A stretch of 64,000 nt of DNA from Candidatus Latescibacterota bacterium. GTDB taxonomy: Bacteria > Latescibacterota > UBA2968. The translations under genes and the position numbers were made by a program. Location: assembly GCA_965205975.1 (NCBI GenBank), contig OZ242195.1, positions 1,536,001 to 1,600,000 of the forward strand, read 5' to 3'. Below the pieces are notes generated by a model that saw only the letters and a program-made list of their open reading frames with translations, was not told the DNA's origin and ran no database searches. Shown in pieces: positions 27,643-47,702 of the stretch (position 1 is the stretch's first letter; each line of letters opens with the position of its first letter).

Positions 27643-30600
27643 CTATGCATTGACCACTGCTGTGGGTGCTGCCAGCAACTCTCGCCCTTTTTCTGTGTAT
27701 TTGGCGCGATTCGTTGGATCAACTGTTCGCCAGATCAAAAACTGTTTGCGAAGGGCGTTCATAAAACCCTGATTGCCCCGCCGCCACGATGCCACATCAC
27801 CCGAAATCCGATCTATTGTCAGCGTCATCGCAAAAATATTGTGCTCACCTATGGGCACGGCTTCAAAATGCACCTGTTGACTCACCCCCAAATCATAAGG
27901 CGCTAACCAGATTGTCGTATCAATCGTATAGCCCGACCCGGTTTCTGCTTCAACAGAACCAAACCGCGCACCATCTGTATAAAACGCGCCCATGGACTCG
28001 CCCATGTGCGACTCGAAATAATCCACCAGAAATACCGACAGCCCAAACACGTCTTTACCACCTACGGTAAATGGAAACTCAAAATGCCAGTGATCGCCTT
28101 CCGGATCGGGCAACCTCCAGCGGCGCGTCACATCGGGCACAGCCATAAGTGCCGCCTGACGCGCGGGATAGAGCGACGAAATCAAAACCACGACCATCAC
28201 CAGAGCTGAAGAAATAACCGTTGACAATGCCGAGTAATTCACATTAAGCCCTTGCAACCACCCCTGCCACAACAAAACTTTGATCACTCCTTGACCGAGC
28301 AAATACCCCGATACAGTACCCAATACAGCGTAAACGCACGCTTCGGCAATAAACAAAAAAGAGATGTGTACAGGTGCCAACCCCACGGCAGAATAAATAC
28401 CAATCTCGCGGAAGCGCTCGTACACCGACCCCATCATCGTATTCAGCACAATTAGTGCAGCCACCAGAATGGGAACAAACAAATTGGCAAGGCCGGGCAA
28501 TGGCCCCCATCCCAGCGAACTGTAAATTGACACCTCGATTTTGCCGTCTTCCCCTGGAATACCCGCGTACACAACCACCGACAACCGCGACACGTATTCT
28601 TTGACCTGTTCTTCGACATTTACATCTTCGTGCAAACGAATTGCCACAGATTGCAGTGGACTGCCCACTTCGCGCAATATCTTATAGGGAATAATGGCAA
28701 TATCGTCCGGATCTATATGCTCGAATGGCATGTTCTCGAGCTGAGGCTGTTCCAGACCCTGTTTTTCGCGACTCTCCCGCTGAGTCATCTGAGAGATAAT
28801 TTCATCATCCGTCAGCTTAAAATCTGCCGGACTCAATATCTCGCCATCCAGGTCCTTGAGATCGCGCATTTTTTCCGCATCGATCAAACCCACGACTTTC
28901 AACTGTTTGCCAAATAAGCGCACGCTCTTTTTGCCGACATCTTCAGGTTCCACTTTGAGCAATCCGGCTATTTTGCCAGGCAAAATACACGCGATCTCAC
29001 CCTCTTCAAACCACCGCCCATGGCTCAACAAGGTATCGATCCCCGTGACCGCGGGTTCATTGACTGATAGTCCCACTATTCCCAGCACTTTGGTCGTTTT
29101 TTCCGGCGTTTCAATAGGCGTCTTTTTCAGGTCCCGCGTAACATACCAACTGCGCGGCGCGATCTCACCCTGATCAAAAAAATTGATGCGGGCATAATCA
29201 TAAGCCGTATCCTCCAGCGGCCCCCAGAATTGGCTGCGGATCAACAGCCCCGGATACTTGCCTTCGGTATCATCCAGCGGAAGTTGATGAAAATCGAGCG
29301 TCGTCTTAATCGACGTAAAGGACAACACCGTAAATGTCAATAAGACCAGCGTGACAAATGTCAGGCTGGTGCGCATTTTGCGCTTTTTCATATTCGCAAT
29401 ACCCAACTGAAATGCTGCCACTGAAGCACTTATACGCCCCACATCCGTATCGTGCAACAACACCTCTTCTGTGCGCAGTTGACGGATATTGTCGTGAAAC
29501 CGCCCCGACACAATGGAAATCACAAAAACCGCCAGTGCCAGAATCACAAAAGCCAGCAAAATCACAAATGGATTGGAGAGATCAAAAGCGGGATGCACCT
29601 GCGCGAGAACGGTCCAGATCACCACAAAAACCACGCTAAAACCGCCGATTTGCACCCGGATATCGGAAAAGGTAAAAAGCAACCGCTCGACAAAAAACGC
29701 ACACGGAATAACCAGCAGCATAAAGAAAATCACGCCTCGAATTACATCGTTTTGCGTTGATTTTACGTCTGGATAGGCGCGCGATTCGAGGCCCATGCCC
29801 GCGCGCGTGTGTTTGACAAACAAATCCCATTTCCTATCTTTCATCGCTTCTTCGGCCAAATCCAGATGGTATTTGGCCTGATCGTGCAAATTGGTCATCC
29901 GCTGGTTCTCAATCGAATACTTCTCCAATTCGCGCATCCGCGCCTCGTTCAGTGTCCACATATCTTTTGCGGCCTGAAACGAAGAGCGAATAAACGCCCC
30001 CCCGTGTTGCAAAATCTGAAACCCATCGCCGCGCGCGACTTCCACACTTTCCGCGCTCTTTGAGTTCAACAACAAATAGCGCACGCCGATCTCTCGCTCC
30101 CGCATCACAATTTTGATTCGTTCGCCCGGCGTTGTAAAAATGGTTCCCACCGGTTCTTCTGGACCAAAACCAATGGCATAGCCGTATTCCTGTGGCGCAG
30201 TATTGCCGGGACCGAGCACACTGATGCTCGACAACTTGGTGAGATAACGGGGATCGACTGTATCGTAAAAATCCGTTGCAACACACGGGAACAAAATCCG
30301 CGTGCGCTTGGATATCCACCAGTCCATATTAAACTCGCCCCGGTATATGCGCGCCTGGCGGCCGTGATTGGGTGCGTATGTGATCTCGCCGCTTTCTGGA
30401 TCCATATAAAAAGCCTTCACATCCACACGGCGTTCGGCAATGCCCGGCATGTAAAATTCGCCATTTTCATCGGCAATATCGTAATAGACGCGGCGCACGC
30501 CTTTAATCGATTTGTCATTGCCCATTCGCAGCGAAGCCACAGCACCGGGACGGGGGCGATCAGGTGTAATGCTCAGGCGGGGAAATGTGCGCACGAAACC

Positions 30601-32160
30601 CTGCAACCCGCGCATGCGATCGTCGGGATCCAGCTTGTAATCGGGCAAAAAATCTTCGGAATTTAACCCGAGGTCAAGCACGCCGGCAAGCAGGCGTATC
30701 TGCCCGGTGAGATTTTTGAAATTCACATGTTCGGGTTTATCCAGCGGAGTATCTACTCTAAAACGCGCATCGTTGACCGTAATGAGCGATAGCGCTGGCG
30801 TGCCAGCTTCCAAAACGACCTCACCATCTGTCTTCAGGACTTTTCCCGGAATATACATATCCCAGTTCATGCCGCCTTTGGGATTGATTCCATCGATGAG
30901 GGCATCGGCGGGGTCCAGGTCAAAGCGCTCGGCTATCGCCTCTGAATAATGCACAAGCGATTTGCCAAATGGCGTGAAGAAACGCTTGTAATAATAATTG
31001 CGCGTGCTGTTCCAAACCCCGATTTCATCTGTCTGACTCGTCAAATCCAGAGAAATGAACAGCGGCAATTCGAGAGGTTCAGTCATCAATGCGGCAAAAT
31101 GCTTTTCTTTCCGCGAATGTCTGCTCAAAAAATCGCAAATACCTCTAAAGCCGAGATGATGCCCAGAAGATGCGAGAAACAAAAGCGTGTGTTTGGGCGG
31201 GTACTTGCTGAAATATTCGGCCAACTTCATCAGGCCCACAATCCCACCTGCCATCTCAGCGCCTGGCGCGAGTGCTGGTACTACAGACATCGCATCGTAA
31301 TACGTATTGATCACCACGATTTTTTCGCTCAATACGGGATCGATTCCGCGAATCCAGCCCAAAATATTCCGGGTCTCTTTCTTTTCCCAATCCATTCGCG
31401 CCTTCAAAGTGACATTGACCTCATCCTTTTGCGCAATCAATTCCTTCAGCTTTTCGCCACTTGCCTTATCGATCCAAAAACGCTCAACACTATTGGGCAC
31501 CTGCAAAAATTTGGTCTCTGCCTGCGCGGTAAATGTGGAATCGGGTTCGATAAATACAATCTGCTGTGCGCCGAGCATGGCGGCATTGAGCCAGTTGTTC
31601 CACGAATTAAATTCCATCAACACCACCGCGCCCTCTATATCGCGCCCATTAAATTCCGACACATCGCCAGTGCCTCCCCACAAGAGATGCCCCCGCACGC
31701 CACCTGCGGGCAAGGTGGTCGTCTTGACCAGATTGGGCCACAAACCGTGAATGGTAAAAACCTCGCCTGTATCTTCCACCATTAAGCTGCCGCCCTGGTC
31801 TATGGGCACGGCCACGCCATACGTCTCGGCTTCTACGTCTTCCATGCCAAAACGCCGAAACTCAGATTCTATAAAATCCGCGGCTTTTTCATGGCCGGAA
31901 TAACCCACTACGCGTGAATCGTAGCGCACAAACTGATCCATCAGCGTGCGAATCCCATCTTCGCGCACAGCATCCAAAACCCGTGTACCCACTTCTTCTG
32001 CACGAGGAACGGGTACGGGCGGAACCTCGCTGGGCACTTCCAATCCCAATAGAGCAGCTATATGGGGATTTACGCGATAGGGACCGGCAATCAGGAGTGC
32101 CGTAACAAAAATCCCCAGGACGATAAGACTCCAGGTGATGTGCTTATAATATTTATCCAT
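27643..32160 (-). CDS. Large membrane protein: M28-like peptidase/PA domain fused to a MacB/FtsX-like permease
   Basis: SRVVGYSGHEKAADFI, NILGWIRG, YYDAMS..PALAPGAE (M28-like); C-terminal NTMMGSVYERFREIGIYSAVGLAP and YPARQAA (FtsX permease). Confidence 0.75.
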   Translation of the reverse strand: MDKYYKHITWSLIVLGIFVTALLIAGPYRVNPHIAALLGLEVPSEVPPVPVPRAEEVGTRVLDAVREDGIRTLMDQFVRYDSRVVGYSGHEKAADFIESEFRRFGMEDVEAETYGVAVPIDQGGSLMVEDTGEVFTIHGLWPNLVKTTTLPAGGVRGHLLWGGTGDVSEFNGRDIEGAVVLMEFNSWNNWLNAAMLGAQQIVFIEPDSTFTAQAETKFLQVPNSVERFWIDKASGEKLKELIAQKDEVNVTLKARMDWEKKETRNILGWIRGIDPVLSEKIVVINTYYDAMSVVPALAPGAEMAGGIVGLMKLAEYFSKYPPKHTLLFLASSGHHLGFRGICDFLSRHSRKEKHFAALMTEPLELPLFISLDLTSQTDEIGVWNSTRNYYYKRFFTPFGKSLVHYSEAIAERFDLDPADALIDGINPKGGMNWDMYIPGKVLKTDGEVVLEAGTPALSLITVNDARFRVDTPLDKPEHVNFKNLTGQIRLLAGVLDLGLNSEDFLPDYKLDPDDRMRGLQGFVRTFPRLSITPDRPRPGAVASLRMGNDKSIKGVRRVYYDIADENGEFYMPGIAERRVDVKAFYMDPESGEITYAPNHGRQARIYRGEFNMDWWISKRTRILFPCVATDFYDTVDPRYLTKLSSISVLGPGNTAPQEYGYAIGFGPEEPVGTIFTTPGERIKIVMREREIGVRYLLLNSKSAESVEVARGDGFQILQHGGAFIRSSFQAAKDMWTLNEARMRELEKYSIENQRMTNLHDQAKYHLDLAEEAMKDRKWDLFVKHTRAGMGLESRAYPDVKSTQNDVIRGVIFFMLLVIPCAFFVERLLFTFSDIRVQIGGFSVVFVVIWTVLAQVHPAFDLSNPFVILLAFVILALAVFVISIVSGRFHDNIRQLRTEEVLLHDTDVGRISASVAAFQLGIANMKKRKMRTSLTFVTLVLLTFTVLSFTSIKTTLDFHQLPLDDTEGKYPGLLIRSQFWGPLEDTAYDYARINFFDQGEIAPRSWYVTRDLKKTPIETPEKTTKVLGIVGLSVNEPAVTGIDTLLSHGRWFEEGEIACILPGKIAGLLKVEPEDVGKKSVRLFGKQLKVVGLIDAEKMRDLKDLDGEILSPADFKLTDDEIISQMTQRESREKQGLEQPQLENMPFEHIDPDDIAIIPYKILREVGSPLQSVAIRLHEDVNVEEQVKEYVSRLSVVVYAGIPGEDGKIEVSIYSSLGWGPLPGLANLFVPILVAALIVLNTMMGSVYERFREIGIYSAVGLAPVHISFLFIAEACVYAVLGTVSGYLLGQGVIKVLLWQGWLQGLNVNYSALSTVISSALVMVVVLISSLYPARQAALMAVPDVTRRWRLPDPEGDHWHFEFPFTVGGKDVFGLSVFLVDYFESHMGESMGAFYTDGARFGSVEAETGSGYTIDTTIWLAPYDLGVSQQVHFEAVPIGEHNIFAMTLTIDRISGDVASWRRGNQGFMNALRKQFLIWRTVDPTNRAKYTEKGRELLAAPTAVVNA

Positions 32161-34144
32161 AGCGATGTACCCAATGTCCGCGTTCAGGGAACCAGATCAT
32201 GTCGATACCCAATGACAAAGCCACGCCGAGAATATATCCGACGAGCAAACCGATGAACAGGGGTCTCGATTTGCGATAAACCGTTGGCCCGCCTACTTTT
32301 ATGATTACAAACTTAATCAACCAAGCCAGAAAAGTTGTAAAGCTGGTGCGTCGGGCCAGATAAGAACCCGAAATCGCCAACCCCACGGGATGCAGCGGCC
32401 ACCACACAAAGCGATAGCGCATATAGATCAATCCAGCCATCAGCAGACCGCCAATGCCCAAAAATACCGCTTGTTCGGGATGTTCCTCATAAAATGGCGG
32501 CTCGTCAGGTTTTTTGATCGCATCAACCGTGCTCTGAAAATGGCGTTCGGCTGCCCGCGTGATCTCCCAACTGTTGAAATTATAAGCCCCTTGATCGTAA
32601 CCCAACCACACGGTAAACAACATATTAAACAGCAAGCTGACCATAAATACCAGTCCAAGCGCCCCCATCAACCGCCGCCGCTGATTGCCGGGAACACCCT
32701 CGGAAACACGCCCGGCATGGGAAAGCGCGGGCATAAACAAGCCCTTAAAATTCTCGTTAATCAGTGCAGAAAAGCGAAAAGAGACGAGGGTGGAAAGCGA
32801 GATATTGCGCCTTCCATAAAACGATGCGACCATACTCCATGACCCAATGGGTTTGCTCGCAAATGGCATGCCGGTATCGGCGAGGATCTTCGCCATACCC
32901 GTATAGACAAAAATCGCTGCCAGAATATATAAAAATCCTTTAAACGGATCGAAATTCATCTGCGTCAGCCAGATAAACAAATACGCTATGCTGCACAGCA
33001 AACCGATACAAGCGGCGCGATAGGACATCAATTCCTGGGAGTCATCCACTGTGGGATCCCTCCCGAGAGCCTTCATCAACACATCGCGCAAATGTTTTCT
33101 CGCTACCCAGAATGTCGAACCCACAAAAACGACAAAGGCTCCAAAAGTCTGCCAGTAATACACTCCCGTGCGATAATAAGGCGTGGTGGCTTTATAGCCC
33201 CACTTAGTGAGCTGGCCACCTTCAAAGATGAACACCAGATCAAAAAACCAGATGGAAAACAGAACATCCAGGCTGGCAAAATAAGAAAAAAGAATGGTAA
33301 AAATGCCAAAGTATCCCCTGATAGGCGGCAATTGGCGATCTATCCAGTACCAGCGCGACCGATAAATGGGAAAACGCGGAAAGCCCGGCAAAAAGTAATT
33401 GATACAATTCCAGGCCAGCACCCCAAACGCAATGGCAAATCCGATCCAGAACAAGCGATTGCGCATAAACTCGGGCAACCATCCCTCACCATCGCCCGGT
33501 TCAGAAGCCATATCGATCAACGGCGCCATTGCGGGAAAAACCAGGCGTTCGTTTTGCACCCATTGTTTTCTAAAAACAGTGGCCACACAGGCCAGCATTA
33601 AAAAAGCCGCCGCCACAACCGTCGTCCACCAGAACAGGGGCAATATCCACACGCCCCAGGGGATAGTAGCACCACTCGGCAAGCCTTCGTAAAACCACGC
33701 AACGGCATTGCCCTCGTGGCTCGGCAAGAGCCAGTTGGGCAAATGCGGGTGCAAGTGCTCAGCCCACTGATTTTCTTCCGTCGCAAAATAATAAGGTGCC
33801 GTAATATAGCCGATCAAATAACCCGTCATTCCAAAACACGGCAGTGCTGCGCCCACAAGGCCCATCGCCAATATTGCATGCCATTCGCCTTTTGAAAGAA
33901 CCCAGCCGGTCATTTTGGCAACAATGGCAAGCCCGATCATCAGAATCATCAAAATGATCAGCATGGCCATTGGAATGTGGCTATACGTCATCAGCGAAGC
34001 GTGCAAGACATAGCGTACATACATAGCCAACAGATCGAGGGCAATGACGAGAAAAACGCCCAATCCCACAGCGCGCAGTGTTACTGCGGGTTGTGAACTC
34101 GCATCATCTGCTTCTGTCTGAATATTTTGTATATCAAGAGCCAT
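32153..34144 (-). CDS. DUF6785/DUF6784-like polytopic membrane protein
   Basis: PYYFATEENQW, WFYEGLP....PWGVW..P, FRKQWVQNERLVFP, WWPLHPVG, GG..YRKSRP.FIGL..G. Confidence 0.75.
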   Translation of the reverse strand: MALDIQNIQTEADDASSQPAVTLRAVGLGVFLVIALDLLAMYVRYVLHASLMTYSHIPMAMLIILMILMIGLAIVAKMTGWVLSKGEWHAILAMGLVGAALPCFGMTGYLIGYITAPYYFATEENQWAEHLHPHLPNWLLPSHEGNAVAWFYEGLPSGATIPWGVWILPLFWWTTVVAAAFLMLACVATVFRKQWVQNERLVFPAMAPLIDMASEPGDGEGWLPEFMRNRLFWIGFAIAFGVLAWNCINYFLPGFPRFPIYRSRWYWIDRQLPPIRGYFGIFTILFSYFASLDVLFSIWFFDLVFIFEGGQLTKWGYKATTPYYRTGVYYWQTFGAFVVFVGSTFWVARKHLRDVLMKALGRDPTVDDSQELMSYRAACIGLLCSIAYLFIWLTQMNFDPFKGFLYILAAIFVYTGMAKILADTGMPFASKPIGSWSMVASFYGRRNISLSTLVSFRFSALINENFKGLFMPALSHAGRVSEGVPGNQRRRLMGALGLVFMVSLLFNMLFTVWLGYDQGAYNFNSWEITRAAERHFQSTVDAIKKPDEPPFYEEHPEQAVFLGIGGLLMAGLIYMRYRFVWWPLHPVGLAISGSYLARRTSFTTFLAWLIKFVIIKVGGPTVYRKSRPLFIGLLVGYILGVALSLGIDMIWFPERGHWVHRYG

Positions 34145-34358: not shown

Positions 34359-34434
<76 letters not shown>

Positions 34435-34525: not shown

Positions 34526-34548
34526 TTCACTGGATTAATAATATCATC

Positions 34549-34574
34549 GTAGGGGACGGTCCCTGTGCCGTCCC
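34549..34574 (+). repeat. GTAG-type REP element
   Basis: GTAG + GGGACGG-TCCCTGTG-CCGTCCC hairpin; related copy at 41664-41688. Confidence 0.6.
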
Positions 34575-34610
34575 GAACAGTCAGCATAGCAGGTTGCTTT
34601 TAAATTCGCA

Positions 34611-35402
34611 TTACAAACTCTGTGCAACCCGAAACCCCACATAAAGGCTCCCGGCAAAGGTTCTGTGTTGATCGCGAGCAGCCGAGCGAAGGAAATATCC
34701 TTCCAGGTACCAGGCACCGCCGCGCACCACGCGCGCAGTAGAATCGCCGACCTCCCACGCAGACCCGTCATTGGGTGCGCCCACATATCTATTATTATAA
34801 CGATCCTGAGTCCATTCCCACACATTGCCGTGCATATCGTGAAGGCCCCAGGCATTGGCCTCGAACGATCCCACAGGTGCTGACATCTCGTTATCCCACT
34901 GACTGCCGCACCCATTGCAGTTGGCGCGGTTGTGACCAAGATTATGCCCCCAGCTATACCTCGTCACTGTTCCCGCGCGCGCCGCATACTCCCACTCTGC
35001 TTCGCTTGGCAAACGATAATTCTTTCCCGTCTGCTTCGATAACCACGCTGTGTACGCCACCGCATCATCCCAGGTGATATTGACCACGGGACGCTGCCCC
35101 CGGCCGAAACCCCGGTCGTCTGCTCGCTCGCGCCCCGTCGCATCCGTGAAGAGATCGTACTCCTCAAATGTCACCTCGTACTTCGAAAGCGCGAACGACT
35201 CAATCGTTACTTCATGCACTGGCCTCTCGCTATTATTACAACTTCTTCCCGATACGCACCCCATCTTAAAACTTCCCGCAGGAATCACCACCATCTCCGG
35301 CGGCTCAAAAGTAGCCTCTTTCTCCTGCGAAACCTGAGCGGATGTACCTGTGGAAAATCCCAACAAAAATAGAACGGAAAAGCTACTGATGATTCCCCGC
35401 AT
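34611..35402 (-). CDS. Formylglycine-generating enzyme (FGE/SUMF1) domain protein with signal peptide
   Basis: MVVIPAGSFKMG, KYEVTFEEY, RLPSEAEWEYAARAG, GLHDMHGNVWEW, RGGAW, GFRVA. Confidence 0.9.
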   Translation of the reverse strand: MRGIISSFSVLFLLGFSTGTSAQVSQEKEATFEPPEMVVIPAGSFKMGCVSGRSCNNSERPVHEVTIESFALSKYEVTFEEYDLFTDATGRERADDRGFGRGQRPVVNITWDDAVAYTAWLSKQTGKNYRLPSEAEWEYAARAGTVTRYSWGHNLGHNRANCNGCGSQWDNEMSAPVGSFEANAWGLHDMHGNVWEWTQDRYNNRYVGAPNDGSAWEVGDSTARVVRGGAWYLEGYFLRSAARDQHRTFAGSLYVGFRVAQSL

Positions 35403-35485
35403 GATATCTCTCCTGTCATTGATCATCTGTAAATGCTCATGACATAAAAAATAAGACAACTTCTTATGCATGAGAAACATATTTT

Positions 35486-36214
35486 TTACCTCCCGATAGT
35501 CACATTGACCAGGGCGCCGGGTCTGACATGCTTTCCCGCATTTAAAAAAAGACCCGTTACTTTACACGTCCCATTTTCCGGATCAATAACAGGACTGATC
35601 CCGACAATGCGCCCGGGCAGCGCGCGCTTTCCGCCAGCGGTCAGCACGGCAGACAGCGGCATATTCTTATGAATCGCGTTCAGCCTACCCTCGGGCACAA
35701 ACATAAACACCTGAAGATCCACAGGGTCAATCACCCGCGCGACCGCGGTGTAAGCCAGTACCCAGTCACCTGCCTTTACATTGACCTCGACCACCATCCC
35801 GTCCTGGGGTGCGATGATTGCGGTTCTGTCCAGTTCCATACGCGCGGCGACCCAGTTATAGTGTGCGACCTCGGCATCGAATCGGACATTTTCGAGCTGC
35901 TGGTCACTGATCAGCTTCTTATCGTGCAACACTTCCAATCGCGCTTGCAGAGTCTGGGCCTTCTTCAGTGCAATTCGAGCCGCGACTTCCTTCACGCGCA
36001 AATCTCGGCGGGATAATACCATGAGGGTATCCCCTTTGACCACCCGGTCTCCCACCTCGAAATTGACCTGCTGCATCCGCGCGTTCATCCCAGCATAGAC
36101 AGTTGCCGATCGCGCAGATACTAAAGGTGCTCTCAACATCAATTCTTCTGCATTGGCCCTTGCGGCAATGAACATGAGGAACAGACCGCACAGAAACATC
36201 GCGTTGTATATCAT
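35486..36214 (-). CDS. RND/MFP periplasmic adaptor subunit-like protein
   Basis: Signal peptide, lipoyl half-motifs (EVGDRVVKGDTL; IIAPQDGMV....KAGDWV), coiled coil, ISPVIDPENGT, PGALV. Confidence 0.8.
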   Translation of the reverse strand: MIYNAMFLCGLFLMFIAARANAEELMLRAPLVSARSATVYAGMNARMQQVNFEVGDRVVKGDTLMVLSRRDLRVKEVAARIALKKAQTLQARLEVLHDKKLISDQQLENVRFDAEVAHYNWVAARMELDRTAIIAPQDGMVVEVNVKAGDWVLAYTAVARVIDPVDLQVFMFVPEGRLNAIHKNMPLSAVLTAGGKRALPGRIVGISPVIDPENGTCKVTGLFLNAGKHVRPGALVNVTIGR

Positions 36215-37404
36215 AGTTGATCTCCTATCAGGCGAATACGTAACACACCCCAGAATCGTACGTTTTTGCGTTTCAGAGCCTCAATCTCTTTCTCCTTATC
36301 CGCCAGTTCTCTCTCAACTTGTTCCAGTTTCAGATAGTGAACGGGCGGATAAGCCATTTTCAGGTCCTCCAGTTTTTCAAAAACCTCTTGCTTCTGCCTT
36401 AACAAATCTTTTATGCGTTGTGAAAGGCCTCTTAAAATAGGCTGAAACCGCAAAATCTCCTTTTTTTGGGCAAAATTGAATTCAATTTTTCGGGTAGTGA
36501 AACTGACGGCACTGCTCGGAGCGTCTTCCTCCTCAACTTCAAAAGAAGCATCTGCCTCGAGCAGTCCAGAGACAAAACTGTTTTCCTGGATCTGATCCAC
36601 CAGTTCCCGATAGGTCTCGCCTTTCAACCGGAGCGCCTGTATTCTCACGGGGCGATCCGTCTCCTCCACGCGCACCTTATCCGGCAAAATCGCACCGTGT
36701 TCTCCGCACGTCAGAACCCGCCCATCGAAAAAGATCCAGAACCACGCGGGCCTGGCATCGAGAATCAGAGCTTTTCCACTTACCTTCTCCCGCGTGTGTC
36801 GCCATTGTCCTTCAAAATTCAAATAGGTTTCTGTATTGGCGCTCCGATAATCTGCATAAGCAGCCGAAGGCGTCGCCATCAGATATCTGAACGACCGCCA
36901 GATACCGCCCATAGTCGATATGGGCATGAACAATAGGAGCAGTATGACAAACACAGCCAATACAGTACCCTCCCCCAGGAGGGATCCGGTTTTGACCCTG
37001 TACTTCGCACTGCCTGGAAAAACACAAACCGCGGGATGGGGATAAAACAAAGGCACGCCGCTTTTGGTTGCACTATCGGCGATCAGGTGGCTCATATACC
37101 CTAATAGTATGGCTGTATAACATGCGGTTTGCCAGACAAGCAAGGGCAAGGTGACAACCGATAGAGCGAGCATACAGAGCATCGAATGCGTAATCGTCCG
37201 GTGCCCCCATCGTCGCTCAATCGGAATAGAAGCAAAGGGCATCACCCGGCCAATATAACTTCTCGGCGAATCTACATCCGGAAGCAGACTCCCTATGATC
37301 GCGCATGCAATCGCGGGAAGATTGCGGTGGATGGACATGGAAAAGAGCGAGAAGGAGCTCGCCACAGTGAGCAGCCCAAATGCGATGTGTGTAGGTGCAG
37401 TCAT
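36211..37404 (-). CDS. YdjM/DUF457-like membrane metal-dependent hydrolase with long C-terminal extension
   Basis: THIAFG, GSLLPDVDSP.S, GHRTITHS, GYMSHLIADS.T.SGVPLFYP; C-terminal coiled coil. Confidence 0.8.
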   Translation of the reverse strand: MTAPTHIAFGLLTVASSFSLFSMSIHRNLPAIACAIIGSLLPDVDSPRSYIGRVMPFASIPIERRWGHRTITHSMLCMLALSVVTLPLLVWQTACYTAILLGYMSHLIADSATKSGVPLFYPHPAVCVFPGSAKYRVKTGSLLGEGTVLAVFVILLLLFMPISTMGGIWRSFRYLMATPSAAYADYRSANTETYLNFEGQWRHTREKVSGKALILDARPAWFWIFFDGRVLTCGEHGAILPDKVRVEETDRPVRIQALRLKGETYRELVDQIQENSFVSGLLEADASFEVEEEDAPSSAVSFTTRKIEFNFAQKKEILRFQPILRGLSQRIKDLLRQKQEVFEKLEDLKMAYPPVHYLKLEQVERELADKEKEIEALKRKNVRFWGVLRIRLIGDQL

Positions 37405-39071
37405 CGGTTGAACCTGTACATGAAAAATCGAATGCCCACCAAAAGCGCACTGCCAATACCTGCCAGCACATAGCCCTCCATGCTTCCGATACCGCGCATG
37501 AAGAATCGCGCTGCGACCACAGCCAGCAGAAGCAGCACCACGGCGAACGTAAGATCGATCTGGTTTCGCGCGCCCGTATGCAACACATCTCGCACCACGG
37601 ATCGGGTTACCGCCGGTTCTTTGCGAAACCGTTCCACAATCTCAATAATGGCGCGCGGATTGCCAGCACTCTGCTGCAAGATATTCGTCTCAGTCATTCG
37701 GTAGTCTTCTATATTGGCGCCAGCAGTACACAGACGGATGAGTTTTTTCGCGTCCGCAGTAGATAAGCGCTCTATTTCTACGCGGTCGAACTTCCAGAAG
37801 TGTTTCTCGTAGGACCTCCGTACTTCTGGCAGGGCCGCGATAATGGTAAACTTGCGGTTGAGTTTGTCGATCAACCGCCCGACGGAGGCGGTCATATCGG
37901 ATAGATCATCCACAATCAGCACGAACTCATTTTTCTTCACCGAGCCGAGCACCATATCTGTCCAGCCCTGGATGGTCGTGCGGGTGTGTTGCTTTTTGAT
38001 TGTTTCAAAGGGAATGGATGCCCCGGGCGCGATATTGGGAACTGAATGATCTGTTTCAATAGCATCACCTCCTTCGGCTATGTGTGATTGATTGTTGTCT
38101 TGATCTGCCCCAACATCAGCAATCAGAGTCTCCCCCTTCATCTCTTCTTGCCGTTGCCGTGCCCGGGGCCTCTCCCCTTCCTCTTTGTCCGGACCGTCCG
38201 GACATAGCCTTCCTATTTTGTGCAGCTCCTCTGCAATATTTATCAGGCTCTCTTTCGCCGGTGAAAGCGTCTTCACCACGAGCGCGTTTTCAGCCTCGAG
38301 CAGTGCGAGCAAATGACTTTTGCCCACGCCGATCGGGCCGAGCACCAGCGTATCAATACTCTTACTCAAGTTGTCTTTGAGCTGGCGCAATTCTTTGTCG
38401 CGTCCCACTGTCTGTAGGACCCCGATATGCAACTGCTTTCTCGGCTGAACAAAAAATCTGTAATCGCGGTTCTTCTGCCGCGACCACCACCGCGACAACC
38501 ACGACCTGCGGTCGATGCGGTCAACAGAATGTCGCTTTTGTTCGGCACTCACAGAAATGTAGATGGACGACGTCTCGATGGACGCATGCCCCATCAGATC
38601 TTTGATGCGCTCGACCGGTACATTTCGATCTGCCAGGTCCGTGCCGAAAGTGTGCCTGAGCATGTGCGGATGAACGTGGCGGATCCCCGCGCGCTGCGCG
38701 TAGGTCTTCATGGCTGCCCACACGGTCTTGCGGCTGAGACGTTGTCCGTTGCGGAGATTGCAAAAGACATAAGGAGAATCCGAAAAATGACGGGACTCCA
38801 GCCACTCGCGGAGCACGTCCTGCACCTCGAGGTTCATCGGGACAACCCGCTCTTTGTTGCGTTTGCCCGTGAAGCGAAGGCTCGGTGTGCCCGTTGACCA
38901 ATGGATATTGTCAACCGTGAGTGAACACGCTTCGGATACGCGCAGTCCACACCGCGAGAGCACGGCGATAAGCGCGCGATCGCGCGGGTTCATGCGTACG
39001 GATTGGAGTGCTTCAAGCTCGTCTTGCGCGAGCGCTTTGGGGAGTTTCTGTATGGATGATCGTGATGTCAT
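37401..39071 (-). CDS. Tyrosine recombinase catalytic domain fused to a P-loop ATPase and a C-terminal two-TM anchor
   Basis: R (GLRVSE), K (GKRNKER), HxxR (HMLRH), H (MGH), Y (SSIY); then GPIGVGKS Walker A, LIVDD Walker B, SAGNPRAI, two terminal hydrophobic helices; single uninterrupted ORF. Confidence 0.85.
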   Translation of the reverse strand: MTSRSSIQKLPKALAQDELEALQSVRMNPRDRALIAVLSRCGLRVSEACSLTVDNIHWSTGTPSLRFTGKRNKERVVPMNLEVQDVLREWLESRHFSDSPYVFCNLRNGQRLSRKTVWAAMKTYAQRAGIRHVHPHMLRHTFGTDLADRNVPVERIKDLMGHASIETSSIYISVSAEQKRHSVDRIDRRSWLSRWWSRQKNRDYRFFVQPRKQLHIGVLQTVGRDKELRQLKDNLSKSIDTLVLGPIGVGKSHLLALLEAENALVVKTLSPAKESLINIAEELHKIGRLCPDGPDKEEGERPRARQRQEEMKGETLIADVGADQDNNQSHIAEGGDAIETDHSVPNIAPGASIPFETIKKQHTRTTIQGWTDMVLGSVKKNEFVLIVDDLSDMTASVGRLIDKLNRKFTIIAALPEVRRSYEKHFWKFDRVEIERLSTADAKKLIRLCTAGANIEDYRMTETNILQQSAGNPRAIIEIVERFRKEPAVTRSVVRDVLHTGARNQIDLTFAVVLLLLAVVAARFFMRGIGSMEGYVLAGIGSALLVGIRFFMYRFNR

Positions 39072-39216
39072 AAGCAACTCTATGGGTTAATGGATTAACA
39101 CATTCTTTCTACGGTATTGGGGACGTACCTGACATAATTCGTATTGGGTTGTTCGCGGCGGAATCTATCGGTGGGGTTAAAACCCCGTGCTCAGTATGGG
39201 AAAAAAACACCGCCGC

Positions 39217-39534
39217 TCACGGAAAACGACGATGCTTCGCATCCTTTTTGTTCGACCTCCGACCGAGACAAAAAGTCACCCGCTTTGCGGGCGGTCGTTT
39301 ACTCATCAGCGTCTCGAGAAGCGGTGCCAGGAAGATCGCCGCGATGAACGTTATCCAAAACCCGTTGTCGGCAATCATCGCCGGCGCAGAGAGACCGAGA
39401 ACGCGCTGAAAGTGCGCCCGAATCACATTGTCTCTGGATCCGAAGACATCGAGGACGTCGGGTGTGGGATGGGTTTCTGGTGGGACTGTACGGGACGGTA
39501 CTGCTGGACGGGTTGCGAGTGACTGGTGAACCAT
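39217..39534 (-). CDS. Small hypothetical protein (105 aa) with one hydrophobic segment, first ORF after the sigma54 promoter
   Basis: AGGAGG RBS 9 nt before the ATG; FWITFIAAIFLAPLL segment; overlaps a strongly structured region, so coding status is uncertain. Confidence 0.35.
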   Translation of the reverse strand: MVHQSLATRPAVPSRTVPPETHPTPDVLDVFGSRDNVIRAHFQRVLGLSAPAMIADNGFWITFIAAIFLAPLLETLMSKRPPAKRVTFCLGRRSNKKDAKHRRFP

Positions 39535-39595
39535 GAGAAACGCCCTCCTGAATGGGTTTGGAACTGAAAATTTTGATCTCGTGCCCTGTATATAG

Positions 39596-39611
39596 TGCAA
39601 AAATCGTGCCA
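39596..39611 (-). promoter_or_regulatory. Sigma54 (-24/-12) promoter
   Basis: Minus strand TGGCACGATTTTTGCA, consensus match. Confidence 0.85.
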
Positions 39612-39685
39612 AACAAGCCGAAAAATTCGTAAGTGCTTGCAGGAGAGCGTGTTTTTAAAAAATGACGAAAAACAGACATGCCGAA

Positions 39686-39745
39686 AACTGTTTCATTTGA
39701 AACAGTTGGTGTGTCATATGACACAGTTAGGATAGAAATGAGACA
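39686..39745. promoter_or_regulatory. Putative upstream activator sites for the 39596 promoter
   Basis: Palindromes AACTGTTTCA-TT-TGAAACAGTT and TGTGTCA-TA-TGACACA plus a half-site TGAGACA, ~21-bp periodicity. Confidence 0.6.
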
Positions 39746-39989: not shown

Positions 39990-41567
39990 TCACATGCCCC
40001 ATACGTCAATCTCTACCCCGCTGATAGATGTTCGGCGGAAGTGGAACACCTTGTCGTCCCAACGCCTGTCTTCACGCCGATCAAAAATCACCAGATGACC
40101 CGCCTCCGCATCGCAGCGATCCATGTATTCCGCGGTCTGTTCCAGACCCTCGGCAATGGTCTGTTCCAGACTCTTGTGGAGCAATTTGCACTCAATCACA
40201 ATCTTGCGCGTCTGATTGCCCTGTGGCCATAAGATCAACAGATCGGTGCGTCCACGTCCCAAACCATACTCCCGTTCAATACGCCCACCGCTGTTGACAA
40301 TGCGCTGCAAAAACGCCTGCAACAGCAACTGAGGACCCGCCTCCTGGTATTGGAACCGCGTCACCCAATGCTCTGAGTGTTCGCGGAAAAAGGTCTGAAA
40401 CTCGGTCAGCAGTGCAACCACGTCCAGGCTACCATCAGCAGTGACATACCAGGCAGTTTCCTGCTCAAACTCCTCCTGGACCACCCACGTCAGTTCGCGG
40501 GGAACGACCTCGGCGTAGATGGGATTGGCGATACGCACGGGACGATCCTGAGCCACCAGGCCGAGATCGCGCACATACTCTATGTCGCGGTCAATGAAGC
40601 GGCGCTCCTCGGCTCCGCTCAAGAGTGGCTCGACAACGCGCCGCACGCGGTCTTCCTTGAGCTTGTCGGCCAACTGATCCAGGTGTGTCTCTCGGCGCAG
40701 GATGAGTTGCTCTTGCGCTTCTCGGATGGCCTCGGCGGTGATCGCGATACTGCGGTCTTCTGCTGCTTCCCCATAGAAACAGGTCTCATCCGCCAGCGCA
40801 TTCACCAGATAGGGTTGCCCTTGTGTCTGCGTCCAGACCGTCTCCAGCGCGGCGGCGGTGAACGCCTGTCCCGTCTCCTCCGTATGCTGCCCGAGCAGGG
40901 CAATTACCTCATCTTGCGAGAAGTCACCGAGGCGCAGGGATCGCGCTTTGATATTGAACGCACTGCCACCGGCGATGAGGGCGTTCTCTGCAGTTGATTG
41001 GATGCGGTAATCGCGCACATCGCGCACCCCGCACAGCACCACACTCTGTGGAAATCCCTCCGGGCGGCGGACATAGCCAGCCCGCAACTGCCGCAGCACA
41101 GACAGCAGCGAATCGCCAATCAGAGCATCGATCTCATCAATAAGCAGTACCAGGGGTTTTGAGTTCGCCTCGGTCCAGCGCGTCAACGCTTCGCGCAGGG
41201 CGCCGTGGGGTCCGTATTTTGATAGAATGTCGGGCCAAATATCGTCCAGAAATTCGTCGCCCAGTGTCGAACGCGCCCAGGAGGCCAGTTCGCCCAGAAT
41301 GGTACGCATCACCTGTTCCACATCTTCGCGTGCGGCCTGCCCACCTTCGATATTGACGTACACACACCGATAGGCGTCTTCGGCATTGAGCAAATCGCGC
41401 AGCGCCAACAATGCCGAAGTCTTGCCCGTCTGCCGGGGCGCGTGCAAGACAAAGTAGCGTTTGTCGCGGATAAGCCGGCGCACATCGGCAAGGTTCAGCC
41501 GTTTTAGGGGCGGGATACAGTAATGATCTGCTGCCACCACAGGACCGCTCGTATTGAAGAAGCGCAT
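39990..41567 (-). CDS. AAA ATPase (AAA_35-like) with C-terminal PD-(D/E)XK nuclease-like domain
   Basis: FFNTSGP, HAPRQTGKTS Walker A, LLIDEID Walker B, GQPYLVNAL, GRGRTDLLI...VIECK. Confidence 0.85.
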   Translation of the reverse strand: MRFFNTSGPVVAADHYCIPPLKRLNLADVRRLIRDKRYFVLHAPRQTGKTSALLALRDLLNAEDAYRCVYVNIEGGQAAREDVEQVMRTILGELASWARSTLGDEFLDDIWPDILSKYGPHGALREALTRWTEANSKPLVLLIDEIDALIGDSLLSVLRQLRAGYVRRPEGFPQSVVLCGVRDVRDYRIQSTAENALIAGGSAFNIKARSLRLGDFSQDEVIALLGQHTEETGQAFTAAALETVWTQTQGQPYLVNALADETCFYGEAAEDRSIAITAEAIREAQEQLILRRETHLDQLADKLKEDRVRRVVEPLLSGAEERRFIDRDIEYVRDLGLVAQDRPVRIANPIYAEVVPRELTWVVQEEFEQETAWYVTADGSLDVVALLTEFQTFFREHSEHWVTRFQYQEAGPQLLLQAFLQRIVNSGGRIEREYGLGRGRTDLLILWPQGNQTRKIVIECKLLHKSLEQTIAEGLEQTAEYMDRCDAEAGHLVIFDRREDRRWDDKVFHFRRTSISGVEIDVWGM

Positions 41568-41809: not shown

Positions 41810-41988
41810 AGTAGCGGTAGATCATGACATTCCAAGTTTACTAATGGTAGCGAGATCTCCGTTCCACGGTCTTCTACCAATTGTACCCAGGGAGATGTAT
41901 CAGGTTGCTTTTGAGTACCCCACAGGACATGGTATTCTGTTAGTGCATTGGTCAGGCCTTCCGTTCTCAGACAACGGCTTTGCCAACG
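41810..41988 (-). pseudogene. Internal fragment of a Csx19-like type III-D CRISPR protein
   Basis: Translates RWQSRCLRTEGLTNALTEYHVLWGT...WVQLVEDRGTEISLP...LPL (LWGT and EDRG motifs); directly after the RAMP fragments. Confidence 0.55.
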
Positions 41989-42490
41989 GGATGTTCAGGA
42001 GGAGATTGGGCTTTTTTCACACAACATTCGAGGAATGAGGCATCACCACTACACCCGACAAGAGTCATACCGCTATTATACTGCGAAAACTCCCACTCAG
42101 TCTTTGACGATTTGCGCCGCTTCAATTGCAACTCAGCTTTGACACCCTGGAGAGTTCCACGACCATTGCTCGTTTCTCCGCCCAGAGCAGCATGCCCATG
42201 CCAGAAGTCGCGCAAAGTCAAGAACAACAAGCCATTGTGTTCTAATTGCAAGAGACGTTCCTGATCAAGTGTTTTTTCAGCCTTAAACACAAAAACACTA
42301 CCAGAGGCGATAGCGGGCCATTGCTGACGCGGGAGGCGCAGGTGGGAATTATATCCGCCAATTATCTCAGTGCGGGTATAGCTACTGCATAGTTTGAGTT
42401 CCGAGGTCTTCAGCCCCAGATTGTCAGCCAACTTACGCTCGGGAAAACACGCCTCCGGGTGTCCGTAATCGTTGACAGTCAGCAAAATTG
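41967..42490 (-). pseudogene. Fused fragments: Csx10-like C-terminal part joined to a Cas7/Csm3-like C-terminal part
   Basis: IGGYN.HLRLPR...AIASGSVFVF (Csx10/Cas5-like), then GLLFLTLRDF...LGGETSNGRG (RAMP G-rich loop). Confidence 0.65.
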
Positions 42491-42990
42491 AGTAGCGCAT
42501 TGCCAGGAGGCTCAAAGAACCTTACTCGCGCTTGAAATACCAGATCTGCTTTCAAGGTACGGGTGAGACGGAGTGTATTCTCAAGTGCTGCGCCTGTCCT
42601 GCGGTCAATAGCGGTCTGGGCACGCACGGAGGCAAAATGCTCCACAACATCGTCTGGGGAAAGTTTTTTATGGTGCTGTAAATATCTCAACCATTCTCTT
42701 AAAGACGACGCCTCTTGTAATTCAGCATTGGCAATATATAGACAAGCATCCCCTTGTCCTGAATTACCGAAAATATGCTCCACTGGCATAGGGAATTCAC
42801 CGCATAACTTCCACGCATCGGCAACATCGCGATAGGCTTCGCGCCATAACCCTTTGATTCGCCTGCCAGGGAGAATGGGTAATCCTAAGTCGTCAAAGGC
42901 TATATCGCGATCAACCACGCCCACACGCCCTTCACCAGCGGCAGAGGTTAGCGGCGATTGCAGTGTGATTTGCAAAAAATACTCAGTCAT
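42490..42990 (-). pseudogene. 5' part of a RAMP (Csx10-like) type III CRISPR effector gene, truncated
   Basis: ITLQSP, DRDIAFDDLGLPILPGRRIKGLWRE, IFG, RAQTAIDRRTGAALENTLR; lacks its own G-loop. Confidence 0.75.
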
Positions 42991-43045
42991 TCTTGATCTC
43001 CTTCCCTGTACTCTCGCCATCTTTTACTGGTTTCTTCACTTCTAA

Positions 43046-43209
43046 AAGGAAGCGCGGTTGGCTATCTTCTCCTACATTGAAGGATGGTATAATCCGCATC
43101 GCAGGCATTCTTCCATCGCCTACTATGCGCCGATAGCTTATGAAAAGTTGCATCTATCACAGGCTTGATACACAAGCCCTAAACTCTCCACCGAAGCGGG
43201 GTAACTCCA
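43046..43209 (+). mobile_element. IS3-family remnant: transposase C-terminus plus right end
   Basis: Translates KEARLAIFSYIEGWYNPHRRHSSIAYYAPIAYE* (43046-43168); ends TCCACCGAAGCGGGGTAACTCCA with terminal CA. Confidence 0.8.
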
Positions 43210-43901
43210 CCCATCAAGGATGTGTTATCCTGGAGCCACAAAACCTCAAGATTGGAGAGTTTACCCAATGCTGCTGGAATCGCACCCTCCAACTGATTGC
43301 TACTGAGGTCCAGGTAAGTGAGACTGGGAAGGCTGAACAATTCGGAAGGAATTGTCATCAGTTGATTATCTCTCATATAGAGCCTGCTGAGCACGGTCAG
43401 ATCATCAAAGAGGCCATCGGGCAGACTACTGAGTCGATTCTCTTGCAGGTTGAGCTTTGTCAGACAAGTCAGACCAGATAAATCCCCTGCCTTCAGTTCT
43501 GTGAGACGTGCATCAGATAGACTCAGAGAATCTATGGCTGATAGATGTGCCACTGTCACATCGCCGCAAGTGCTTACAGGCACTTGTGCCATAATCGAGT
43601 CGCGTACGGCAACTGTGCGGTCGCATACCGATACGCCTGGTGGAGGGACTTCTGTGCCAAATGAATCCACAAATACCAAAAAATCTGAAAATTCAATCAC
43701 ACCATTGCCATCCAGATCATATTGGGCTTGATATGTCTCATCGCCTTGACGCGCTCCAAACTTCTCCACAAACGCCAAAAAGTCGGAAAAACCTACGAGA
43801 CCATCTCCATCAAAGTCCGCAGAACGTGTCGTGTTCGCAGAGGCATAACCCATACATACCAATACCGCTAAAGCGGTCATAAGCACCCATCTCCTTCTCA
43901 T
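43210..43901 (-). pseudogene. Secreted EF-hand/dockerin-like + LRR protein, truncated by the IS3 end
   Basis: RBS GGAGG, signal peptide, ADFDGDGLVGFSDF...YDLDGNGVIEFSDF, VCDRT..VRD, LRRs; ORF runs into the IS3 terminus at 43209. Confidence 0.75.
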
Positions 43902-44187
43902 ACTATTACACCCTCCTTCAATAAATGTGACCCAAATGGGGTCAAGGCCGATCAAAAACATTTCTACTCCTTTAGCACCAAGTAGAACAATGCAACTTGA
44001 TTTTATGCTTGCGGGTCAAGTCCACACCAATCACACCATTTTCATCCGTCCTGATTAGGAGAGGACAACCCGAAGGGAGTTCGCTGATGGTCATCACTCA
44101 TCAGCCGAAATTAAAGGTTGCCCTCCCATTTTCTTGAGTCTTGTATCCAGATTTCGGTTATGATGATGGCATTAGGACAGTATTTAA

Positions 44188-44203
44188 TGCAAAAAGCGTG
44201 CCA
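44188..44203 (-). promoter_or_regulatory. Sigma54 (-24/-12) promoter
   Basis: Minus strand TGGCACGCTTTTTGCA; divergent from the activator gene. Confidence 0.85.
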
Positions 44204-44315
44204 ATGCGAGCGTTGTTCCGAAGAGCTTATTCGTAAAGGGTTGTTTTCTATAAAGAAAAAGAGCCAATCTGACTATATCATAGCGTCGCAGAATAGTCGG
44301 ATTGGCTCTTATACA

Positions 44316-44370
44316 AGACCTTATATGGTCTTATAAAGACGTATTATAGTTTTTAGACCATAATACGTCT
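44316..44370. promoter_or_regulatory. Putative upstream activator sites for the 44188 promoter
   Basis: Three AGAC-N8-GT(C/T)T units at 44316, 44337 and 44355. Confidence 0.55.
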
Positions 44371-44480
44371 CCGTTGTTATTTCTGTTTTCAAGTGTGAAA
44401 TTTAATATTATGTTTCTTTTTCAAGTGTGAAATTCAATGTATAAACCCGTTTTTTTTACCCATATCACAAGGTTCTTCCT

Positions 44481-47400: not shown

Positions 47401-47702
47401 CCATACAGCGGGCAGTGGTTTTGTGTACTGACTCTCAAATCGTAAAGAGGGATCTGGGACTGTATGGTTCTCGAATCGAAGATACAACTCAGGACCTTGA
47501 GAGGCGCACCTTATCGACTTCTCAAAACCGAGAAGTCGTGCCTTTGGCAGAATTGGAGCGGCGCCACATCCTCGATGTGCTCGAAGCCGCCAACTATCAG
47601 ATAAAGGGACCCGAGGGCGCGGCAACGCTGCTGAAAGTACCGCCTTCTACGCTGTATGGAAAAATGCAAAGACTGGGCATTGAAATAAAACGCGGTGTTT
47701 GA
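44481..47702 (+). CDS. Sigma54-dependent enhancer-binding protein with N-terminal Reg_prop beta-propellers and Y_Y_Y domain
   Basis: Repeated (E/Q)D..G..WF.T..G motifs, YVYRLKGYD...YRNLPPGDYTFQVRA, GETGVGKG, GAFTGA, FLDEIG, FREDLYYRL, WPGNVREL, C-terminal HTH. Confidence 0.92.
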   Translation: MTKPLDRTGTYRTYSVTNGLAGMRIEHIAEDSEGCIWFATWDNGVSRFDGNEFQNFTKQDGLIDDRTYFVAQDSQNRMWFGTANGVCWYDGARFHHLDDDGIVDRDVRCIYEDREGRVWFGGTRTLGYCDGTAFHDMIPLYLQHHEKPPSPRWNQCWGITQDPQGQMWFGFNYLIRFDGQSFHRYDKRDGFIQDGTAYALDKDHTGKVWIGRFDKRDELWCYADGTFQSIQVDLGGALRKIQCDREGRMWFSTSEGAWYQDGDGFSRFTPADGLPQSAVKAVFQDRDHQFWFATWSGVGLYDAHSISVFDLNKASPKDKKPNEVSQIVQDRQGDIWIGRVSPVFNYLDKSVFRFDGEHFAVLDSEQDFDIDNCFSMYKDHEGYLWFGGLNGLFRYDGQKLKKMKIAAGLGDRSISAITQDSQGQFLFGYWEKGTYKTEFKKEVLSASPLKIIYQRDEQFQTIFVQKKNKDVLDRIGTIIAGRNSEVYFHLACHTGGWGLARWHPEDGLKFYGIEDGLIDDRVTDLLEDRDGNLWIATLSGLCRFDGSTFQIFTTEDGLPSNRIRCVFEDRKGHLWLGTDQGVAHCDGQLFQTINSPHIGPVCRILEDRDGTFYFGTIMGSIIRYRLRQTAPRIRLLQVIADKVYENSEEAIVSKTGQQVIFEYKGLSFSTHPSDMLYVYRLKGYDADWQPATRRMRAFYRNLPPGDYTFQVRAIDRDLNYSEIAQARLSITEDPRIEAWTDVINRRESQKFIGHSAALRQFQINLEKIASTNMTVLIMGETGVGKGLAARTLHALSAHNTGPLIEVSCGALPGTLIDSELFGHERGAFTGAVFHRLGRVELAEGGTLFLDEIGDMALETQSKLLRLLEEGTFERIGSSETRMAKTRIVAATNRNLEEMVSRGDFREDLYYRLNAFPMYLPPLRERKEDIPHLSEYFKDRMASHLGKQIIPLAPEIIEVLQSYDWPGNVRELEHTIQRAVVLCTDSQIVKRDLGLYGSRIEDTTQDLERRTLSTSQNREVVPLAELERRHILDVLEAANYQIKGPEGAATLLKVPPSTLYGKMQRLGIEIKRGV

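Follow-up and report, generated by a model that had tools for sequence, protein, structure and literature searches.

A tyrosine recombinase-ATPase fusion with envelope-channel partners on plasmids and integrated elements: a candidate DNA-export module

What is a tyrosine recombinase doing in one polypeptide chain with a membrane-anchored ATPase, next to genes for envelope proteins? The question is raised by a 64,000-nucleotide stretch of the genome of a Candidatus Latescibacterota bacterium (GCA_965205975.1, contig OZ242195.1, positions 1,536,001 to 1,600,000; hereafter the window). A preliminary description of the locus, made from this stretch alone, took it for a sigma54-controlled host operon for ATP-gated recombination, possibly linked to DNA export/uptake or to envelope phase variation. 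Our comparisons indicate instead that the window holds the stranded, partly decayed core of a plasmid or integrative element. Our tentative reading, held with a little less than even confidence, is that this element encoded its own trans-envelope DNA-export machine, in which the recombinase would process element DNA at the membrane.

Results and discussion

A recombinase and an ATPase in a single chain

Three open reading frames (ORFs) make up the core of the locus.

37401..39071, minus strand: recombinase-ATPase with two C-terminal membrane helices (ATPase-2TM), 556 aa from its ATG (domain profiles, structure model, dN/dS)
36211..37404, minus strand: membrane metallo-hydrolase of the long YdjM type, 397 aa, the ATPase's core partner (profile, alignment, model)
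35486..36214, minus strand: membrane-fusion (periplasmic adaptor) protein (MFP), 242 aa (TIGR01730 above cutoff)

The 556-residue protein consists of a recombinase domain (residues ~10-190), a disordered linker, a STAND/AAA+-like ATPase domain (~221-500) and two C-terminal membrane helices (508-528 and 531-555; hydropathy peaks 2.5 and 1.7). Domain profile searches returned a Phage_integrase match at residues 14-176 (E 5e-41) and an AAA_16-like match, below cutoff, at 222-404. The catalytic set R44-K70-H136-R139-H162-Y171 is complete, and the ATPase motifs (Walker A GPIGVGKS, Walker B VDD, and GNP) are in place. A core-binding domain is absent (the N-terminal extension has a median of 6 aa in 141 fused relatives), and matches to Xer profiles begin at profile position ~91-106. 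Domains, catalytic residues, Walker motifs and helices were all found as first described, as were the 4-bp ATGA overlaps to the YdjM and MFP genes; a 5-bp gap follows to a gene with an FGE-sulfatase domain.

An AlphaFold model built on 43 sequences (mean predicted local distance difference test score, pLDDT, 78) contains the recombinase domain, a P-loop domain with a helical lid, an unstructured insert at residues 295-350 of the ATPase domain, and the terminal helix pair. Foldseek placed XerH/XerA at the top of its matches, followed by RFC and NRC2-type AAA+/STAND folds. With its R-K-HxxR-H-Y set and DNA_BRE_C fold, the ORF belongs to the tyrosine recombinase superfamily; its best profiles are XerA/C/D, at 133-151 bits against cutoffs of 220-335, i.e., below every Xer cutoff. 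The ATPase part carries a STAND-like GxP motif and gives weak nSTAND/NB-ARC matches, an Atlas search with it yielded unnamed AAA clusters only, and the sensor repeats of STAND defence systems were not found in the protein. The ratio of nonsynonymous to synonymous substitution (dN/dS) was 0.02-0.20 for the recombinase-ATPase gene against 7 copies and, over all compared copies of the three core genes, 0.02-0.30. These low values may reflect selection from the time when the element was mobile.

The fusion is old and recurs across phyla

Using the non-recombinase part as query, we retrieved 81 homologues and 510 clusters at 50% identity. A recombinase domain was present in 69 of the 81 homologues and in 87 of the 150 best representatives, or 156/231 retrieved relatives, and a second intact fused copy lies in the same genome (G000:C1:2793850-2795517, 94% identity). 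The possibility that the fusion was peculiar to this assembly, which the preliminary description had allowed for, was not borne out by this search; an assembly chimera is ruled out by the second copy together with the 69 fused homologues. Among near-complete fusions (n=141), 139 retained the nucleophile tyrosine, all 141 the Walker A lysine, and 108 a fully canonical set of six catalytic residues. Taken together, the homologues indicate that the fusion is real and old.

Distances between recombinase domains and between ATPase domains are correlated (rho 0.81, n=142), a value inflated by relatedness. On a midpoint-rooted tree, built without an outgroup, of 98 ATPase domains (75 fused, 23 unfused), the fused and unfused labels change 6 times versus a shuffled mean of 20.8. 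This tree topology fits one fusion with losses as well as it fits several fusions. The ATPase was present in 22/168 genomes of its own phylum, in 15/20 genus relatives and in 11/401 genomes of G050's phylum (seed included), and a metagenome scan yielded 3 short loci. Range and prevalence are lower bounds, the pattern scan behind them having listed at least 120 matches that were mostly unrelated STAND proteins. In two relatives (P0113 and P0152), the ATPase-2TM is fused to N-termini that look, by eye, like helix-turn-helix (HTH) domains, with no recombinase.

A conserved module of envelope proteins

We compared 42 loci from plasmids, metagenome-assembled genomes and relatives. A long YdjM was encoded within 7 ORFs of the ATPase in 38/42 of them, and the remaining four were two contig ends, one plasmid with YdjM 5.6 kb off, and L209. 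In the 397-aa protein of the window, five hydrophobic helices are followed by an SH3/Sm-like barrel, another beta domain and a hairpin of helices, and its metal ligands (H6, D43, D45, H68, R69, H73, H106 and D110) are invariant in 32 aligned sequences. In its model (pLDDT 88), the barrel matches the TrmB C-domain (Z 11.2, root-mean-square deviation 1.7, 75 aligned). The C-terminal part gave no Atlas match, no Foldseek match at E<=0.001 and no profile similarity to the MFP of the window; the VIA list was dominated by the hairpin, with the N-terminal and second beta domains hardly covered. YdjM has been grouped with phospholipase C (PLC), Het-C and S1-P1 nucleases (PMC8557891).

The MFP is a separate gene in the window and is fused to, or follows, YdjM in other lineages, with MFP-type tails or genes in L210-L217, L250, L251, L271, L273 and L274; Pfam support is weak for the cyanobacterial and Thermus MFP-type parts. 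A single-repeat OEP protein ("half-TolC") scored above the Pfam cutoff in L213, L215, L187, L123, L271 and L274, and a custom half-TolC profile was strong in 18/45 loci, 8 of those 18 being rows on which it was trained. TolC is annotated in the Thermus and Picosynechococcus plasmids that carry the module; upstream genes in Methylobacter, Allochromatium and Desulfocapsa resemble half-TolC by eye alone, with no Pfam match. Poly_export (Wza/OPX-like) proteins occur in one lineage (L119 and L192). The third components of the module therefore differ by lineage, and all are envelope-channel parts (OEP, Poly_export, MFP). Judged by this gene neighbourhood, the conserved unit is the ATPase-2TM with a long YdjM, usually with an MFP and/or half-TolC, and not a sigma54 operon.

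With regard to known systems, the components shared with type I secretion systems (T1SSs) are the MFP in the window and half-TolC in relatives, and no ABC transporter gene was among the recurring neighbours of the 42 loci. VirB4, a coupling protein and a known relaxase were likewise missing from these recurring neighbours and from the complete plasmids viewed; in two cyanobacterial plasmids, the gene after YdjM encodes a DUF87/TrwB-like ATPase. PADLOC returned no match for the three window proteins. By profile and gene content, the module is an undescribed gene system that falls outside the Xer, FimB/FimE, T1SS, type IV secretion system (T4SS) and PADLOC systems. In the open literature, to which our search was confined (the original pL4C and pA5BP1 reports, among other subscription papers, lie outside it), no description of the module was found. 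The view that the single-chain protein was undescribed held up in the same search, and the chain is conserved in relatives.

A dif-like site beside fused genes

Comparison of the flanks of fused genes revealed a common palindrome with 11-bp arms and a 6-bp spacer (11-6-11), which we take to resemble E. coli dif. The preliminary description mentioned neither this site nor the tRNA-Phe gene discussed below.

39127..39154, no strand assigned: broken dif-like site of 11-6-11 layout, in which arm 39127-39137 and spacer 39138-39143 agree with the second copy, whose site is intact

A strict pattern of the site matched beside 7/27 fused versus 0/34 unfused genes, and all seven matches were close to the fused gene (<=250 bp if upstream, <=35 bp if downstream). 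The 5.56-Mb genome contains only 3 matches, one of which is at the second module copy. Among the 20 fused genes with no match were six genus copies with a deleted upstream region and four with a degenerate recombinase. A site matrix ranked the site first in its own locus in 6/7 leave-group-out tests. Further top-ranked upstream sites were obtained at L249, L250 and L190 (15-19 bits) and, more weakly, at L042 and L070; the best score across 19 unfused loci was 12.8. The complete Flavobacterium plasmid pA5BP1 has exactly one site (shuffled expectation <0.1). In the window, where the other arm has been replaced, the score is 5.3, compared with 26.7 at G000:C1:2795573 in the second copy. By sequence, a putative cognate site of Xer type (11-6-11) is present beside many fused genes.

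The loci L119, L192, L193 and L194 form a subfamily in which the recombinase catalytic residues are lost. In L119, L193 and L194, direct repeats stand upstream in place of the palindrome and a Poly_export gene follows YdjM. The degenerate recombinase of this subfamily has possibly turned into a DNA-binding regulator.

Plasmids and integrated elements carry the module

The fused form occurs on plasmids of Flavobacterium (14 kb), Spirosoma, Haliscomenobacter, Thiospirochaeta and Flammeovirga, and the unfused form on plasmids of Nitrosococcus, Methylobacter, Allochromatium, Thermus, cyanobacteria, Desulfocapsa and a fusobacterium. The module ranges from Bacteroidota to Thermus and cyanobacteria, on plasmids as well as integrated elements, and replication, partition and recombinase genes adjoin the ATPase-2TM and YdjM across many phyla. 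The 14-kb plasmid holds the module and little besides. Plasmids with the ATPase among PLSDB matches were typed non-mobilizable in 11/11, 16/16 and 49/50 cases.

Fuller elements add genes for an HTH/DnaA_N replication protein (rep) and for DnaC/IstB-like, DprA-like, CoiA and SymE proteins. In L016, the order is CPBP, recombinase-ATPase, YdjM, MFP, receiver and HTH/DnaA_N rep, and then DprA-like, CoiA and SymE; other fuller elements of the phylum carry rep and DnaC-like loaders. No relative was confirmed in IMG/VR, where 12 pattern matches all scored <31 bits, or found in 50,697 INPHARED phage records, and we ruled out a phage origin on these grounds. A conserved integrated element was also seen in L207-L217, with half-TolC, a PolX thumb protein, a YdjM-MFP fusion, a RadA-like fragment, an unfused ATPase and a tyrosine or serine integrase.

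The window copy is partly decayed and has a phylum-specific promoter consensus

Around the core, the window contains the following features.

39146..39302, no strand assigned: stretch of ~157 bp not in the second copy, replacing one site arm and the 3' part of the CPBP gene
39217..39534, minus strand: remnant of an Rce1/CPBP intramembrane protease, 105 aa, first gene after the promoter
34611..35480, minus strand: FGE-sulfatase-domain protein, now downstream in the operon; a neighbour, not a module component
34359..34434, plus strand: tRNA-Phe(GAA), edge of the variable region
39596..39611, minus strand: sigma54 -24/-12 consensus, conserved in aligned copies
39689..39704 and 39710..39725, no strand assigned: two palindromic enhancer-like boxes, conserved in aligned copies

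The CPBP remnant has an internal deletion; L016 and the second genomic copy retain the gene intact, at its full 212 aa. What had been taken for a long structured leader is the coding debris of this protease gene; the recombinase is therefore not the first gene of the unit. No rep gene follows the module in the window. Since rep and one site arm have been lost, the window copy is probably immobile, with its three core ORFs intact.

Relatives show a deletion series at the tRNA-Phe locus that spares the promoter and start codon. CPBP alone is lost in G006, G002, G008 and G003, the recombinase in G013 and G014, and nearly everything up to the MFP in G016, G019, G020 and G004; G009 carries the FGE gene with no module, and both are missing from G001 and G017. 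In public contig sets, two of the deletions are seen to segregate. A site-specific origin of the genus deletions is ruled out, with left breakpoints spread over 39372-39572.

The promoter and boxes, read in the preliminary description as a sigma54 promoter with palindromic activator sites, are kept in 10/10 aligned copies. Taken by itself, the consensus is frequent, with 58 occurrences in the genome; of the enhancer-box matches, 5/6 genome-wide are at the two module copies. Upstream sigma54 consensus sequences were found in loci of this phylum only, and the FGE gene, missing from the second copy, is present in the module-less G009. For these reasons we regard FGE and sigma54 as local features, and neither FGE as a component nor sigma54 control as a defining trait could be upheld. 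By their conservation, the promoter and enhancer motifs are real but phylum-specific.

Three further observations concern this locus and its copies. Among 155 inverted pairs is a 19-nt likeness of tRNA-Phe to 39147-39165. A REP-like palindrome with many genomic copies occurs at 34540-34585 and 39484-39501, and one inverted copy lies inside the CPBP remnant. A third, heavily deleted module remnant (G000:C1:4478100-4478770) has YdjM pieces only and stands beside a pyrK-like gene, a position where relatives have an intact unfused ATPase and YdjM.

Comparison with known systems

XerCD is activated by a separate membrane ATPase, FtsK. The Xer/dif systems with FtsK (XerCD, XerH, XerA) are nearest to the window recombinase in sequence and fold, and they share a site with a 6-bp spacer and coupling to a membrane ATPase. 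Unlike them, the window protein is a single, element-borne chain that lacks a core-binding domain and has an AAA+/STAND-like ATPase with a C-terminal anchor. FimB/FimE are likewise tyrosine recombinases with the catalytic domain only; they differ in profile (52 bits versus a cutoff of 221) and in the ATPase fusion, and no invertible segment was found here. T1SSs and other MFP-TolC tripartite exporters share the MFP adaptor and a TolC-family outer-membrane protein. In contrast to these exporters, the module has no ABC, RND or MFS transporter, its inner part is the ATPase-2TM with YdjM, and its TolC has one repeat rather than two.

TcpM, MpsA and MobK are relaxases with no core-binding domain (PMC8152469 and PMC6414798), and proteins of this MOB_M class were systematically missed in the past (bioRxiv 10.64898/2026.01.13.699239). 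The window recombinase resembles the MOB_M proteins (TcpM of pCW3, MpsA of SGI1, MobK of pIGRK) in having the catalytic domain on a mobile element with neither core- nor arm-binding domains (PMC8152469). In pCW3, tcpM adjoins FtsK-type ATPases, and a short YdjM-like protein annotated as a metal-dependent hydrolase is encoded in the same locus. Unlike MOB_M, the window recombinase is fused to an ATPase and its element has no T4SS; TcpM scores 33 bits against the profile of the fused-family domain built here. The site is also a symmetric 11-6-11 core, whereas the origins of transfer (oriTs) described for these proteins are 125-151 bp long with several repeats. Lastly, the long YdjM shares its N-terminal domain and metal ligands with the YdjM family of the PLC/P1-nuclease/Het-C superfamily (PMC8557891), and is distinguished by a C-terminal SH3-like barrel, beta domain and hairpin (~230 aa) and by its fixed linkage to the ATPase.

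A possible DNA-export machine and its alternatives

In the export model, the ATPase and YdjM would form the inner-membrane unit, the MFP would span the periplasm, and half-TolC (host TolC in this organism) would be the outer pore. The recombinase would bind and cut the dif-like site, tethering element DNA to the ATPase at the membrane, either by nicking as MOB_M relaxases do or by resolving monomer circles as Xer/FtsK does. The ATPase would power export, the YdjM metal site (PLC/P1-nuclease fold) would possibly degrade or process one strand, and recipients would take up the DNA by competence or contact. In this phylum, expression would have come under sigma54 control. The comparisons show the domain content, the linkage, the mobile-element context and a candidate site; from there we infer a single channel built of these proteins, action of the recombinase at the site, and DNA as cargo. 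Of what the preliminary description suggested, the link to DNA export and the parallel with Xer/FtsK are strengthened by the presence of a dif-like site and of partners of channel type. A broader version, which we hold slightly more tentatively, is that plasmids and integrative elements with neither relaxase nor T4SS send out their own DNA by way of a type-I-like channel (AAA+ ATPase-2TM, YdjM nuclease/channel, MFP and hexameric half-TolC), and that in many lineages the fused tyrosine recombinase serves as relaxase and coupling protein at once, at a dif-like origin of transfer.

Several points weigh against DNA export. The ATPase is AAA+/STAND-like, by its RFC and NRC2 matches, and not an FtsK/HerA or VirD4 pump; TolC-type pores are not known to conduct DNA, and the host genome has three full-length TolC-like ORFs and no half-TolC. 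The recombinase domain is closer to Xer than to TcpM (133-151 versus 33 bits). It is also missing from 63/150 best representatives (some of these fragments) and deleted in several genus relatives, and R44 and H162 are lost in about a dozen fused relatives; across the sequences compared, the recombinase is dispensable and unfused ATPases are common. As for the site, the regular expression behind the 7/27 count was derived from six of the seven loci that it matched, L189 and the second copy being independent of it, and no good matrix site was found at L034, L035, L039, L188 or L128. By its sequence, a single dif-like site is equally consistent with plain dimer resolution. The non-mobilizable typing (49/50) may be the default MOB-suite call for these hosts. 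Finally, sequence comparison is the basis of the export model.

The strongest alternative, which we consider unlikely though still to be taken seriously, is that the recombinase is an ordinary plasmid dimer resolvase at its dif-like site, perhaps gated by ATP or the membrane, and that the ATPase, YdjM, MFP and half-TolC secrete a protein or confer entry exclusion. The single site on pA5BP1, the 6-bp spacer, the XerA-like profile and the separate full-length recombinase found elsewhere in unfused systems would all suit a resolvase, and the thermonuclease or non-specific endonuclease genes that recur nearby are possible cargo. However, the two domains have stayed fused across phyla and have diverged in a correlated way, beyond what convenience would predict, resolvases usually retain the core-binding domain (PMC8152469), and no secreted substrate is common to all 42 loci.

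Other explanations appear considerably less probable to us. An anti-phage or addiction role, in which the STAND ATPase would be a sensor that sets off either DNA cutting or a membrane phospholipase (YdjM), is improbable: it would account for the GxP motif, the weak nSTAND/NB-ARC matches and the frequency of defence genes on these plasmids, and a proposal exists that YdjM is a phospholipase toxin domain (PMC8557891). It is opposed by the negative PADLOC search for the three window proteins, the lack of sensor repeats, the MFP, TolC and OPX partners, which indicate export, and a module that adjoins replication genes. We rate as similarly improbable a machinery that extrudes a filamentous-virus-like or vesicle-borne particle. 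A membrane-anchored ATPase with an outer-membrane pore is the layout of filamentous-phage assembly, and small unannotated ORFs lie between the ATPase and TolC in Thermus plasmids; yet IMG/VR and the 50,697 phage records yielded no confirmed relative, and no coat-like gene is conserved across the 42 loci. Least probable is a sigma54-induced invertase switch for envelope phase variation, as the preliminary description had envisaged. It would fit the catalytic-only domain, as in FimB/FimE, and the promoter and enhancers kept in 10/10 copies, but invertase profiles score far below their cutoff, each element has a single site with no inverted pair, sigma54 is restricted to this phylum, and no inversion joints were seen inside the module in 4 contig sets (contigs drop rare variants).

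Neighbouring genes in the window

Beyond the module, three large membrane genes (DUF6785/DUF6784 and partners; 27643-34144) are conserved beside tRNA-Phe. An AAA and PD-(D/E)XK protein (39990-41567) has six more genomic copies at 66-86% identity, the behaviour of a solo gene that is mobile. Two RAMP/Cmr-like CRISPR gene fragments (41967-43020; RAMPs E 8e-9, weak Cmr3) have no evident full operon. At 43179-47702, a secreted-looking EF-hand/LRR gene with its own sigma54 consensus (44188-44203) is divergent from a propeller-Y_Y_Y-sigma54 activator gene, and both have many genomic paralogues.

Implications

How plasmids that lack known transfer genes spread is a long-standing open question. With this module, a defined group of such plasmids can be recognised in laboratory hosts that are culturable (Thermus, Synechocystis 6803, Picosynechococcus 7002 and Flavobacterium), which makes the question directly testable. 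The module also supplies a context for the uncharacterised YdjM family and for single-repeat TolC proteins, and it offers a recombinase and a motor naturally joined in one chain, for which a target site is predicted. Should the resolvase explanation hold, it would still be an undescribed plasmid secretion system with a membrane-tethered resolvase. If the DNA-export reading is true, the module would represent a widespread and overlooked route of horizontal transfer.

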